From a virus (taxonomy: Duplodnaviria; Heunggongvirae; Uroviricota; Caudoviricetes): DNA of 30,349 nucleotides. Shown piece after piece: positions 7,761 to 18,208 of this stretch (the first letter of the stretch is position 1; every line of letters begins with the position of its first letter). Position numbers and translations under genes: made by a program. Location: the IMG/VR virus record IMGVR_UViG_2778261692_000006. One strand, 5' to 3'. Under the pieces are notes generated by a model, which was given only the letters and a program-made list of their open reading frames with translations, had not been told where the DNA came from and made no database searches.

Positions 7761-8068
7761 TAATCCACCCATAACACTGATGCTTTTAACTGTGCCGCGT
7801 GCGCTTAGCCGCATTCACCGCATCACAAAATTCACTTTAAAAAGGGGCGGCAGGGCAGCCACGGAGTAGAACTGATGCCGCCAAAGACTACACATAGCAA
7901 TGTCGTTATTTACAACCGGAGGCGCACTCCCACCATTTAAATTTAACAGACAAGACCGACTCTTTATGAATACCGGAAATGCGCCTTCGTGTTGTGCGCC
8001 TGTCTTTTTACCACTTCAGGCTCGGTGGTATACTGGAGTTCTCACACAACCAGTAATAAGGTATTCAG

Positions 8069-13262: not shown

Positions 13263-13739
13263 ATGCAAGAAATCAAAGAAAATATCAGGCAACAGCTTTA
13301 CGGGTTTTATATTGCTTATGATTTGTGGCTGAAGAACGGGGCAAAACCCGGCGGAGTGTTTTCTCAAAATTATGGTTTATGCGCCAATCTTTTCGATTAT
13401 CTCACATTAATTGGTACCCCCTGTGAGGCAGCGCTGGAGCAATTACACGCTGATTTCAGAAGTGCCGGGCTGAATGAGGCGTTGCCGTTTAACGAGGGTA
13501 AAGAGCATTACCATGAAGAAAGAGGGCACAACATGTGCCATATGAATCCGGCACGAGTGGCGTGGGTCAGGGCGCAGACAGGGCAGCCAGCGCCGGAAGG
13601 ACTGGTTAAAGCGGTGCGCTTCTATGAACAGGTTAAGCGTGAAAATCCGCCAGTCGAAACCGGAGCATGGAAAGACGCTGTTGACTGGGTTCTCGAAGAG
13701 GCTTGTCAGGCTGTAAACATTCGCATCAAAGGAGAGTGA
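13263..13739 (+). CDS. Hypothetical protein; C-terminus encoded by junction repeat copy 2
   Basis: 158 aa ending ...NIRIKGE; AGGAGG lies about 25 nt upstream of the ATG with a GAAA-tetraloop hairpin in between. Confidence 0.55.
   Translation: MQEIKENIRQQLYGFYIAYDLWLKNGAKPGGVFSQNYGLCANLFDYLTLIGTPCEAALEQLHADFRSAGLNEALPFNEGKEHYHEERGHNMCHMNPARVAWVRAQTGQPAPEGLVKAVRFYEQVKRENPPVETGAWKDAVDWVLEEACQAVNIRIKGE
13716..13736 (+). repeat. Junction repeat, copy 2 (18-nt core ATTCGCATCAAAGGAGAG identical)
   Basis: Encodes IRIKGE then stop of the upstream gene and supplies the Shine-Dalgarno for the ATG at 13742. Confidence 0.8.
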
Positions 13740-13741
13740 GA

Positions 13742-14233
13742 ATGCAAATTTCACCGGTTACTCTTCGTGTTGCGAAGGCGTTTATATCCAGACATCACCG
13801 ACACAATAAACCACCTGTTGGGCATAAATTCAGCATTGGTCTGATAAATGATGCCGGAGAATTGATAGGTGTGGCGACAGCTGGTCGACCTGTTGCACGA
13901 CATTTGGACGATGGATTAACGCTTGAAGTAAATCGCACATGTACCACAGGAGAACGCAACGCTAACAGCGCGCTTTATGGTGCTGTCTGGCGAGCAGCAA
14001 AAGCTATGGGTTATCAACGTTGTATTACGTACACCCAGGCAGATGAATCAGGAGCATCTCTTCGCGCAGCTGGTTTTGTTCGTGTGAAAGAGCTTCCTCC
14101 AAGAAAAAGCTGGGCGGAATCAAGCGTCGCCTTGCGGAGTAAACGCGATCCGGTCGGAAACGGTGGTGTTCCTCGTGTGCTCTGGGAAATCAGGAGAATG
14201 AGTACCACTGGCATTCGCATCAAAGGAGAGTGA
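13742..14233 (+). CDS. Hypothetical protein, possibly GNAT-like acetyltransferase fold
   Basis: 164 aa from MQISPV (track ORF begins at a TTG at 13703); segment ADESGASLRAAGFVRV resembles the GNAT motif-B region; C-terminus TGIRIKGE encoded by repeat copy 3. Confidence 0.5.
   Translation: MQISPVTLRVAKAFISRHHRHNKPPVGHKFSIGLINDAGELIGVATAGRPVARHLDDGLTLEVNRTCTTGERNANSALYGAVWRAAKAMGYQRCITYTQADESGASLRAAGFVRVKELPPRKSWAESSVALRSKRDPVGNGGVPRVLWEIRRMSTTGIRIKGE
14210..14230 (+). repeat. Junction repeat GGCATTCGCATCAAAGGAGAG, copy 3
   Basis: Identical 21-mer to copy 1; ends the upstream gene and precedes the ATG at 14235 by 4 nt. Confidence 0.8.
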
Positions 14234-14508: not shown

Positions 14509-15333
14509 ATGACCACTATTACCAAAGAACGTATTGAATTGTTCATTAAAAATCCGCTTGAAAACGGGCTTGCCCGTGGCGAACAAATGGAACTGGCGCA
14601 GATTGCACTGGCCTCACTGGCAGCAGAGCCGGTGGCGTGGAAGGCAACCTTCACGCAAATTGACCATGAATATAATACGTTCACCGCTATGTATTCTGAC
14701 AAAGCAGAAGTCGAACGGTGGGTGCGACTGCATAAAGTAGGTGATTTTCGGGCAAAAATAACACCACTTTATGCATCATCGCCAGCGCTGGTAGTGCCTG
14801 ATAAGTTGCCGCGTGAATACATAAGAGGTTGGCCTCTTGCGTATAGTGATTATGCTGAAGGATGGAACGATTGCCGCGAAGCCATGCTTCAGTCAGGAAA
14901 CTTTCGGGAAAACAAGGATTCGTCAACCAATAATTTTCGGGAAATTTCGGAAACGTCAACCAACTCTCCGCTAATTCCTGGTGAAGTGTTGTCCGCAATC
15001 CGGGAGGTTGCCAGGATTCGTGCCGATTTCGATGATTTTGACGGTGACAGGCGAGGTGTTGGTGATTGTCTGGATGAGGCCGAGCAAGAGCTTATCGTTA
15101 CCATTAACAAATATGCCAGTCAGTTGGCAGTAGAGCCGGTAGTACCTGATGACGTTCTGGAACAGACAGTAGCGTCGCCAGTGCCAGGTAACCAGGTTAG
15201 CGAATTAACAATGTGGGTTAAGCGTCTGGCTCACTCCTTAAAGTACGCCAATAGTTTAAGCAGCTTGCCTGATAAGGCGATGGAATATCTGAAGCAGAAC
15301 GGGTTGGTAGGTGTGGAGGATATTTTACGATGA
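14509..15333 (+). CDS. Hypothetical accessory protein with internal tandem repeat
   Basis: 274 aa; imperfect tandem repeat of about 33 nt at 14899-14963 encoding NFRENKDSSTNNFREISETSTN; stop overlaps the next start (ATGA). Confidence 0.6.
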   Translation: MTTITKERIELFIKNPLENGLARGEQMELAQIALASLAAEPVAWKATFTQIDHEYNTFTAMYSDKAEVERWVRLHKVGDFRAKITPLYASSPALVVPDKLPREYIRGWPLAYSDYAEGWNDCREAMLQSGNFRENKDSSTNNFREISETSTNSPLIPGEVLSAIREVARIRADFDDFDGDRRGVGDCLDEAEQELIVTINKYASQLAVEPVVPDDVLEQTVASPVPGNQVSELTMWVKRLAHSLKYANSLSSLPDKAMEYLKQNGLVGVEDILR

Positions 15334-15413
15334 CCTGGCCTGAAGCATTCGCAACGGTAGGAATGGTGATGGCGGTGGCGCTGGTGGTGTATTCGATTTG
15401 CCGTTGGGGTTAA
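15330..15413 (+). CDS. Candidate 27-aa hydrophobic peptide (MTWPEAFATVGMVMAVALVVYSICRWG)
   Basis: GGAGGA 9 nt upstream of the ATG; start overlaps the upstream stop; strong terminator immediately downstream; below the ORF-track cutoff. Confidence 0.4.
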   Translation: MTWPEAFATVGMVMAVALVVYSICRWG

Positions 15414-15422
15414 CAAACAAAA

Positions 15423-15449
15423 ACCCCGGATTGATGGTCCGGGGTTTTT
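15423..15449 (+). terminator. Rho-independent terminator
   Basis: 8-bp stem ACCCCGGA / TCCGGGGT with 7-nt loop, then TTTTT. Confidence 0.7.
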
Positions 15450-15628
15450 GAAGGAAACAAAACAGAAACAACAATTGCCGTTACCTGTTGTTACCATGGC
15501 AAGTAAACGTATCTCAGGCGAGCGCATTGCGCCGTTCTGACGCAGATAAATTAGCCTGGATAGAAGGTGCTGGCAATAAAAAATAGCGTTTTCTTATCGG
15601 TGTCGGTAAGATTGCTGCGGGTGCTTGA

Positions 15629-15668
15629 GGCTGTCTGCCTCAGGCATGCCACTGTAAGGCAGACAGAG
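15629..15668 (+). promoter_or_regulatory. Structured element in the hok leader
   Basis: 10-bp inverted repeat CTGTCTGCCT / AGGCAGACAG around a loop containing the self-complementary GGCATGCC; an overlapping alternative pairing GAGGC/GCCTC is possible. Confidence 0.4.
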
Positions 15669-15787
15669 AAAAGCCCCAGTTAACATTACGCGTCCGGCAA
15701 GACGCTTAACATTAATCTGAGGCTCAATCTATGAACGGCAAATCTAGGTTAGCCTCTTACGTGCCGAAAGGCAAGGAGAAGCAGGCT

Positions 15788-15943
15788 ATGAAGCAGCAAA
15801 AGGCGATGTTAGTCGCCCTGATCGTCATCTGTTTAACCGTCATAGTGACGGCACTGGTAACGAGGAAAGACCTCTGCGAGGTACGAATCCGAACCGGCCA
15901 GACGGAGGTCGCTGTCTTCACAGCTTACGAACCTGAGGAGTAA
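15788..15943 (+). CDS. hok: Hok/Gef-family type I toxin (HokD/RelF-like membrane peptide)
   Basis: 51-aa product MKQQKAMLVALIVICLTVIVTALVTRKDLCEVRIRTGQTEVAVFTAYEPEE matches the Hok family as recalled; AAGGAG upstream; the track ORF (from 15731) adds a 19-aa in-frame extension. Confidence 0.85.
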   Translation: MKQQKAMLVALIVICLTVIVTALVTRKDLCEVRIRTGQTEVAVFTAYEPEE

Positions 15944-16012
15944 GAGACCAGGCGAGGGAGAAATCCCTCGCCACCTCTGATGAGTCAGGCATCCTCAACG
16001 CACCCGCGCTTA

Positions 16013-16033
16013 ACCCGTTTCGGCGGGTTTTTT
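16013..16033 (+). terminator. Hairpin plus T-run downstream of hok
   Basis: Stem ACCCG / CGGGT followed by TTTTTT; a second GNRA-loop hairpin (GGCGAGGGA gaaa TCCCTCGCC) lies at 15951-15972. Confidence 0.5.
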
Positions 16034-16068
16034 GTTGCGCGCTGAATACGCAGGGTGAAAAATAACCA

Positions 16069-17943: not shown

Positions 17944-18029
17944 CTCAATCTGTTATCCGGGGCTATATTCCTCACGCGCCAGCAAAATCTGGCGTCGGGA
18001 TTGGCGTCCCGGATGAAAAAGGCGACAAC

Positions 18030-18050
18030 AGACGCGCCAGCGTCTTTTTT
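18030..18050 (+). terminator. tR'-like terminator downstream of Q
   Basis: Stem AGACGC / GCGTCT with loop GCCA followed by TTTTTT; another hairpin CGCCAG caaaat CTGGCG lies about 40 nt upstream. Confidence 0.5.
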
Positions 18051-18208
18051 ATTGTCGTTTGCACTGTCACATCTCAATGGTGGGCTGTGTGGGGGCGGAG
18101 CGATCCGCGCCGGTTCCTTTTTCCCGGTTACGCCAACCCTGCACAGTTCACCACCATACTGATTGGCGTCAGCAGTGGTGATGATTCACATAGAAAAAGG
18201 ATCATCCT

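Follow-up and report, generated by a model that had tools for sequence, protein, structure and literature searches.

Predicted hokW-type hok/mok/sok module and a neighbouring 27-codon gene in a Rac-like prophage of Escherichia coli

Introduction

The hok/sok locus of plasmid R1 is the archetype of a family of type I toxin-antitoxin modules, and the elements that define this family (PMC9841398) could all be placed in the DNA considered here. An enrichment of hok genes in prophages has already been described in the literature. The hokW-sokW locus is a proven toxin-antitoxin pair, which depends on RNase III and Hfq and raises the yield of phage Sp5. Upon treatment with mitomycin C SokW disappears and HokW then appears in the inner membrane, and deletion of hokW-sokW halves phage release (PMC8621323). 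HokD is described as toxic in one published assay. Here we analysed IMG/VR virus record IMGVR_UViG_2778261692_000006 (Caudoviricetes), a stretch of 30,349 nucleotides (nt) that is termed the window throughout. It carries a hok toxin gene (from 15788) and, upstream of it, an open reading frame (ORF) for a hydrophobic peptide of 27 amino acids (aa; 15330-15413).

Judged from its sequence, the region 15607-16035 appears to be an intact hokD/hokW-type hok/mok/sok type I toxin-antitoxin module, in which the sequence elements and three alternative pairings are present. We consider it likely that three independent units lie side by side at this place, namely the hok module, the 27-aa gene and an inserted segment, a judgement which covers this reading as a whole.

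Results

A preliminary description of the window had proposed a 51-aa Hok/Gef-type toxin gene starting at 15788. Indeed, this ORF (15788-15943, plus strand) matches the Pfam family HOK_GEF (PF01848) with E=1.8e-23 (82 bits against a cutoff of 22) and fits the Hok/Gef type, toxins of ~50 aa whose N-terminal part forms a transmembrane helix. The predicted protein is identical to K-12 HokD in 50 of 51 residues and differs from HokW (933W/Sp5) in five of 51, chiefly in the C-terminal tail; the RefSeq name for hok genes of the window type is hokD. A Shine-Dalgarno sequence AAGGAG is located at 15774-15779. The hok unit is widespread and was detected in 4738 of the 5426 complete E. coli genomes that constituted our survey set.

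The in-frame extension of hok by 19 codons from 15731, which had been compared to mok, is present in the ORF reading as well. It results in a mok frame of 70 aa (15731-15943, plus strand), 61 residues of which are identical in MokW of 933W. A GAGG motif at 15719-15722, read from the sequence, may serve as Shine-Dalgarno sequence 8 nt before the mok ATG, and mok of R1 likewise uses GAGG (PMC9841398). The window thus has an overlapping mok frame with its own Shine-Dalgarno sequence, as is typical of the family, and translational coupling between mok and hok would be expected. As a separate observation, the Hok Tyr47 codon TAC is followed by G (15926-15929), which is the sequence context of A-to-I editing by TadA. 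Such editing was reported to recode Tyr to Cys in hokB and to affect the corresponding position of hokC, hokD and hokE as well (bioRxiv 10.1101/2025.08.07.668861).

A match to the Rfam family RF01794 ('sok') covers 15619-15793 of the plus strand and scores 112 bits (gathering score 59); the last three positions of the model fall on the hok ATG. In effect, this model seems to represent the leader of hok mRNA, that is, the strand complementary to Sok. Because the match begins at 15619 and the homology to 933W agrees with it, the 5' end of hok mRNA was placed at about this position. Together with the 933W homology (15611-16015) and the predicted fold, this suggests a full-length hok mRNA covering 15619-16035 on the plus strand. 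Counted from about 15619, the leader reaches the mok ATG after 112 nt and the hok ATG after 169 nt. The earlier figure of roughly 280 nt has to be corrected, as it merges the leader with an unrelated insert.

The tac, fbi and sok-target elements, for which the preliminary description had suggested a check, were all placed in the leader and the 3' untranslated region (UTR). The putative tac element GGGUGCUUGAGG (15619-15630) forms the 5' end of the mRNA. Downstream of it lies the 10-bp inverted repeat mentioned before, with the arms CTGTCTGCCT and AGGCAGACAG at 15631-15640 and 15657-15666. The ucb or anti-Shine-Dalgarno element AAGCCCC is located at 15671-15677, and dcb (AGCCUC) was assigned to 15751-15756 on the basis of hairpin 3 of the Rfam consensus and the centroid structure of the truncated RNA. 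The fbi element CCUCAACGCACCC (15993-16005) is complementary to tac with one bulged C. Hairpins in the 3' part, also announced in the preliminary description, were found at 15951-15972 and 16012-16029. The former is likely to protect the 3' end of the processed mRNA, by analogy with R1 (PMC9841398), and the latter together with a T-run makes up the predicted hok terminator (16012-16035). All these elements are on the plus strand. An isrK-like match in the hok 3' UTR (26.9 bits, gathering score 50) was driven by the terminator and was set aside.

For the RNA 15619-16035 a minimum free energy (MFE) of -174 kcal/mol was calculated (z = -7.2). The alternative pairings suspected earlier were recovered as closed, open and metastable forms. 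In the full-length RNA, both the MFE and the centroid structure pair tac (15619-15630) with fbi (15993-16005), while ucb pairs with the mok Shine-Dalgarno sequence, which corresponds to the closed form. When the last 50 nt were removed, the centroid showed stems of tac with ucb and of the mok Shine-Dalgarno sequence with dcb. The Rfam consensus likewise gives this open form. In the MFE structure of the truncated RNA, tac is found on the adjacent downstream segment, forming the metastable hairpin described for nascent hok mRNA. All three forms are thermodynamic predictions.

The antisense RNA Sok would be encoded on the minus strand from 15739 to 15669, according to coordinates transferred from the sokW annotation of 933W. 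A minus-strand promoter, which had been expected around 15700-15790, could be read from the sequence as -35 TTGCCT (15774-15769), a spacer of 17 nt and -10 TAACCT (15751-15746). TAACCT is the very hexamer that was mutated for the promoter-less sokW construct (primers YO-421/422), and this mutation unleashed HokW (PMC8621323). The predicted Sok fold (z = -5.5) begins with a free 5' tail, which lies over the mok start, and continues with a long hairpin and a U-run. An antisense gene with a promoter of its own and complementarity to the mok initiation region is therefore predicted, and the sok promoter blocks rank with those 10-nt blocks of the locus that vary least when segments fixed by the search pattern are set aside. 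The control of this hok copy, previously regarded as open, would follow the canonical design of tac, fbi, ucb, dcb and Sok known from R1 hok and the tested hokW-sokW (PMC9841398, PMC8621323). Overall, the hok/mok/sok unit appears to have every feature of the family that can be looked for in a sequence.

A comparison of 117 distinct hok loci showed that variation along the whole hok mRNA peaks at 15729-15738, a 10-nt stretch comprising the mok start and codons 2-3. This is the site first bound by the Sok 5' tail. The variability would fit selection for copy-specific recognition between Sok and hok mRNA in genomes with several hok loci.

The ORF upstream of the hok module encodes the hydrophobic peptide MTWPEAFATVGMVMAVALVVYSICRWG (15330-15413, plus strand). 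A Shine-Dalgarno sequence GGAGG (15315-15319) is located 10 nt upstream, within the last codons of a 274-aa gene (14509-15333), and the ATG overlaps the TGA of this gene (ATGA, 15330-15333). Both the strong Shine-Dalgarno sequence and the coupling to the preceding gene had been pointed out before. One transmembrane helix is predicted at residues ~6-24, with Glu5 before it and Arg25 on its C-terminal side, which suggests that the C-terminus is cytoplasmic.

The preliminary description had made its view of this ORF dependent on conservation. By megablast we found the ORF in 1291 of the 5426 genomes, and it is also present in 91 phage records, Shiga toxin (Stx) phages included. For the ORF as for hok, such frequencies exclude a chance occurrence. 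A degenerate-codon scan of IMG/VR yielded more than 120 loci, nearly every one of which encodes a peptide of 27 aa. Among the representative genomes of 185,579 species, the pattern occurred only in E. coli, Shigella flexneri and two short contigs that resemble contamination. The genes upstream of the ORF differ by locus (DUF551, L0139-type or the 274-aa protein of the window), and the Shine-Dalgarno sequence is kept in each of these contexts (GGAGGTGAATCAATG, GAAGGTGAATCAATG, GGAGGATATTTTACGATG). According to an alignment of six loci, homology extends from the Shine-Dalgarno sequence and ATG to the stop codon, with variation in both flanks. Codon 2 is ACC, AGC, AAC or ATC. Since its first base is always A, which spares the upstream TGA, the ATGA overlap is under selection.

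Two divergent clades were found among loci that had been collected via the hok leader and without reference to the peptide. The clade B peptide is MNWPEAFAITGVAMAIAFLVYVICRWG, and clade C has a peptide of 25 aa (MSRPDAFAGVAIAIAFLVYVICRWG). Between clades, the ratio of nonsynonymous to synonymous substitution rates (dN/dS) was 0.11-0.25. For the common clade compared to clade B, the proportion of synonymous differences (pS) was ~0.7, which is near saturation, that of nonsynonymous differences (pN) was ~0.2, and dN/dS was 0.11-0.15. In the set that had not been selected for the peptide, the ORF is intact in 31 of 34 copies, all indels are in-frame and 6 nt long, giving three peptide variants, and a spanning-tree count revealed an excess of synonymous changes (p=0.0017). 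An all-pairs comparison, which consisted mostly of pattern-selected sequences, gave low pN/pS only in the sense frame and in the codon-aligned mirror frame; the mirror antisense frame has no consistent start or stop, and its flanks vary. These data argue for a real protein-coding gene under purifying selection in frame, with start and stop preserved.

The ORF is not annotated by RefSeq in the loci examined, nor in the records of 933W, Stx2 phage II and VT1-Sakai, and a few GenBank records label it 'hypothetical' or 'bacteriophage protein'. The peptide had no significant match in Pfam, PHROGs and NCBIfam; the best hit was PHROG 4612 (E=0.019), and a match to the KdpF model stayed below threshold (14.4 bits, cutoff 26.85). 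Literature text searches for peptide strings gave no mention, and the supplements of a ribosome-profiling paper on small genes of strain Sakai were negative as well. The K-12 prophages Rac and Qin do not carry the gene, which therefore has no K-12 gene name. A clustering of the peptide with DUF551 proteins of 121 aa turned out to be a linkage artefact caused by partial proteins at contig edges and does not indicate a fusion. The last part of the ORF (15395-15405) is perfectly complementary over 11 nt to mok codons 2-5 (15734-15744). Neither 933W nor strain 12089 retains this match, which was treated as chance.

The occurrence of the 27-aa ORF was compared with that of hok. The tac element, marking the start of hok mRNA, follows within 1.2 kb downstream in 85 of 126 copies of the ORF and is missing in the other 41. 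One of these 41 copies has a Hok ORF and one or two are located at contig ends; most are followed by unrelated terminators and other genes. In VT1-Sakai a clade B copy precedes xis and int in the leftward early region. As about a third of the copies have no hok downstream, the 27-aa gene does not belong to the hok unit and is better described as an independent module at the end of a cluster of accessory early genes.

Directly upstream of prophage hok loci other than that of the window, further small hydrophobic ORFs were noticed, which are preceded by good Shine-Dalgarno sequences. These are a 34-aa ORF (MSDDISLAMEGALAVIAVVGVYCLVVFLMDRLGN; 668 genomes, annotated 'hypothetical'), a 29-aa ORF (VLVLKCALAITAVMAIYCLAIVLMDRLSD; 924 genomes, unannotated) and a 59-aa ORF with two helices. 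Some loci contain the clade B 27-aa ORF, the 34-aa ORF and hok in a row.

The published clone pBAD18-hokW-sokW (primer YO-432, PMC8621323; 933W locus ~1378-1400) begins 7 nt upstream of the start codon of the 27-aa ORF, so it contains the ORF without most of its Shine-Dalgarno sequence. In the published hokW-sokW deletion the ORF is retained. Because the cloned fragment includes the 27-aa ORF, the reading of the published hokW-sokW constructs could be affected.

The segment 15414-15618 is intergenic and lies outside hok mRNA. The distance from the stop codon of the 27-aa ORF to the start of hok mRNA is 41 nt in most loci and 205 nt in the window and a few relatives. By alignment the additional segment comprises 189 nt (15419-15607), and it was found in 30 of the 5426 genomes. 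Two strains carry it without hok, between the terminator of the small ORF and the terminator of a minus-strand gene. The strong terminator that had been described after the 27-aa ORF is a bidirectional intrinsic terminator with a perfect 13-bp stem and an A-run and a T-run on either side (15418-15450).

On its minus strand the insert has a candidate small RNA gene (15576-15414) with -35 TTGCCA (15576-15571) and -10 TAATTT (15553-15548). The RNA would start at ~15542 and end at 15414, at the shared terminator. In 13 distinct versions of the insert, an invariant TTGCCA, a variable spacer of 17 nt, a TAnnTT hexamer and an invariant segment of 44 nt are followed by a variable hairpin, a U-rich stretch and the shared terminator. 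Such an arrangement would be expected of a small RNA gene of ~130 nt on the minus strand, which we treat as a candidate. Of the traits of an Hfq-type small RNA, the promoter, the conserved 5' segment and the terminator are present, whereas for the three stem-loops predicted by RNAalifold a compensatory change was seen in only one of 43 pairs. The candidate RNA matched no Rfam family, and a literature search with its sequence gave nothing relevant. An assignment as Pas small RNA, which is often found within 10 kb of sok, was unconfirmed and seems unlikely; pasA is placed next to holin genes.

The window derives from an E. coli chromosome, as bases 1-1500 match the yebY-integrase junction of an O111:H8 strain with 99.9% identity, and it appears to carry a lambdoid, Rac-like prophage adjoining yebY and not an Stx phage. 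Long ORFs occupy the plus strand from ~9263 to past 22000. They comprise replication and accessory genes, DUF1367, YbcO/DUF1364, a Q-like gene and lysis genes, in agreement with the annotation of the closest relative. The locus thus seems to be located in a nin-like accessory stretch of the rightward early operon, with hok co-oriented with the operon. Further RNA elements above the Rfam gathering scores are RyeA/SdsR (463-607) next to the prophage integration site, RalA, the antitoxin of RalR (2169-2347), DicF (7845-7896, minus strand), and isrK with C4/c4-a1b1-type antisense RNA elements (17963-18158) downstream of the Q-like gene. Two genes upstream of the 27-aa ORF, a 176-aa ORF (13703-14233) showed a Pfam Mom match below threshold (23.8 bits, cutoff 27.1), and a relative of this ORF is named XF1762 family protein in RefSeq.

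Discussion

We propose that the hok/sok module works in the same way as its described relatives. A weak promoter would give rise to a stable mRNA of 417 nt, closed by pairing of tac at the 5' end with fbi near the 3' end, in which ucb masks the mok Shine-Dalgarno sequence. Slow trimming of the 3' end would take off fbi, tac would shift to ucb, and the mok start would become exposed in a hairpin. Hok would be translated only through coupling to mok. The short-lived Sok, made from the stronger minus-strand promoter, would bind the mok-start hairpin by its 5' tail, and the duplex of Sok and hok mRNA would be cut by RNase III. If Sok falls, Hok could insert in the inner membrane. As in the tested homologue, a drop of Sok after prophage induction may allow Hok to aid lysis and phage release. 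Antiterminated early transcription against the sok promoter may contribute to the loss of Sok on induction. In this scheme the processing of the RNA, its cleavage by RNase III, the toxicity of Hok and a role in phage release are inferred from R1 hok and hokW-sokW.

Upstream of this module, the 27-aa gene would end the upstream operon as its last cistron, with translation coupled to that of the gene before it, and for this reason its product would be made mainly when the early operon is on. This product would be a single-pass inner-membrane peptide. The insert would supply the terminator of the operon and probably a convergent small RNA gene.

Several points weigh against this reading of three functional units. 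Sok, hok mRNA, the 27-aa peptide and the minus-strand RNA are all predictions from sequence. A putative hok -10 TAAGAT (TAGAAT in 933W) could be aligned at 15607-15612 on the plus strand, its position following from the mRNA start, but a good -35 is missing, as the insert replaces the -35 region seen in 933W-type loci, and a sigma-70 scan upstream of 15619 found no consensus promoter. The hok copy of the window could thus be poorly transcribed. Regarding the peptide, the set not selected for it is small (11 unique sequences) and gave a weaker dN/dS of ~0.46, premature stops occur in three of 34 copies, and part of the dataset was gathered by a pattern that forces amino-acid conservation. Neither family nor structure nor literature offers a handle on its function.

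If the insert took the -35 of the promoter, hok mRNA would hardly be made, and the locus would be a silent relic. The rarity of the insert variant (30 of 5426 genomes) fits this explanation, as do the chromosomal hok loci of K-12, which have been reported as inactive and as not mediating post-segregational killing. Nevertheless, all downstream elements are intact, Hok is unchanged in every insert-bearing copy seen, and the insert variant is kept at 93-100% identity across unrelated strains. Furthermore, hok promoters are weak by design, and read-through from the early operon under antitermination could supply the transcript, so that we regard an inert locus as unlikely. We judge similarly improbable that the 27-codon ORF is untranslated and conserved for a role of the DNA or RNA, such as a recombination linker between phage modules or an upstream sequence of the hok promoter. 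It is true that the ORF sits exactly at a mosaic junction, that in 933W-type loci 41 nt separate it from the mRNA start, with the hok promoter immediately downstream of it, that the RefSeq pipeline makes no call and that pN/pS is also low in the mirror antisense frame. This frame, however, lacks a consistent start or stop between its varying flanks, and a codon-like substitution pattern is maintained between clades that share only ~67% of their nucleotides. All indels are multiples of three, at least three upstream contexts without relation to one another preserve the Shine-Dalgarno sequence and the ATGA overlap, and hok is absent from a third of the loci.

The preliminary description had raised the question whether the 27-aa peptide is a second membrane toxin, which would be restrained by the convergent minus-strand RNA or another antisense RNA. 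The peptide is short, very hydrophobic and of a size like that of type I toxins, the candidate RNA ends beside the stop codon of its ORF, and prophage hok loci have further small hydrophobic ORFs clustered in front of them as well. Yet nothing supports a type I toxin, since a promoter of its own, a long folded 5' UTR and an overlapping antisense gene are all lacking. There is no intergenic leader in any context, and the ORF is coupled to ordinary early genes. The sole nearby candidate RNA stops at the shared terminator (~15414), does not overlap the ORF and is present in 30 genomes, compared to 1291 with the ORF. In addition, no similarity to any toxin family of Pfam, NCBIfam or PHROG was found. 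A second toxin is thus very unlikely, and the peptide would most likely sit in the membrane as a partner or modulator of a larger membrane protein. It is a far-fetched but conceivable idea that the small single-helix ORFs upstream of prophage hok (of 27, 34 and 29 aa), which look unrelated and taken together occur in thousands of genomes, act together with Hok at the membrane during induction, for instance by adjusting the insertion of Hok or the time of lysis, or by shielding the lysogen. If this partnership existed, the position of these ORFs would not merely reflect a shared insertion hot spot.

About one in four complete E. coli genomes encodes the 27-aa peptide, as do the Stx2 phages of O157:H7, and standard annotation has missed it. 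In size, in its single helix and in having been overlooked by annotation it resembles the small inner-membrane proteins KdpF, AcrZ, MgtS and CydX of E. coli. Unlike them, it is phage-borne and, in the collections scanned, restricted to Escherichia and Shigella, and it has no significant similarity to any of them. The peptide and the candidate RNA are modest new leads. The hok/sok part adds nothing new and represents an ordinary copy of a system already known.

Among the hok loci themselves, hokW-mokW-sokW of the Stx2 phages 933W and Sakai prophage 5 (AF125520; PMC8621323) has the same layout, with ~92% DNA identity over 15611-16015. In the 933W locus sokW is annotated, and the sok -35 and -10, tac and fbi are identical to those of the window. 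Furthermore, as in the window, mok is in frame with hok, Mok has 70 aa, and a homologous 27-aa ORF is found directly upstream. The window differs from 933W in Mok codons 2-5, the target of the Sok 5' tail, which are wholly different, and in the 189-nt insert between the small ORF and the hok promoter; its prophage is a Rac-like element next to yebY, whereas 933W is an Stx phage.

R1 hok/sok and the window agree in their elements and in the three-way switching of tac, and the Sok promoter of R1 also overlaps the region of the hok Shine-Dalgarno sequence. R1 is a plasmid and the window carries a prophage, and the R1 Hok protein shares only ~44% identity with HokW, the close relative of the window Hok. 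In R1, mok overlaps hok out of frame, whereas it is in frame in the window.

K-12 hokD (relF, Qin prophage) is 97% identical in its DNA over 15774-16032. This homology begins only at 15774, and K-12 hokD lacks everything upstream of the hok Shine-Dalgarno sequence, including tac, ucb, the mok start, the Sok target and most of sok, all of which the window copy has. K-12 hokD is transcribed behind relBE, whereas no relBE-like genes precede hok in the window, as had been stated from the start. The window thus appears to hold the complete form of a locus that K-12 keeps as a fragment behind relBE.

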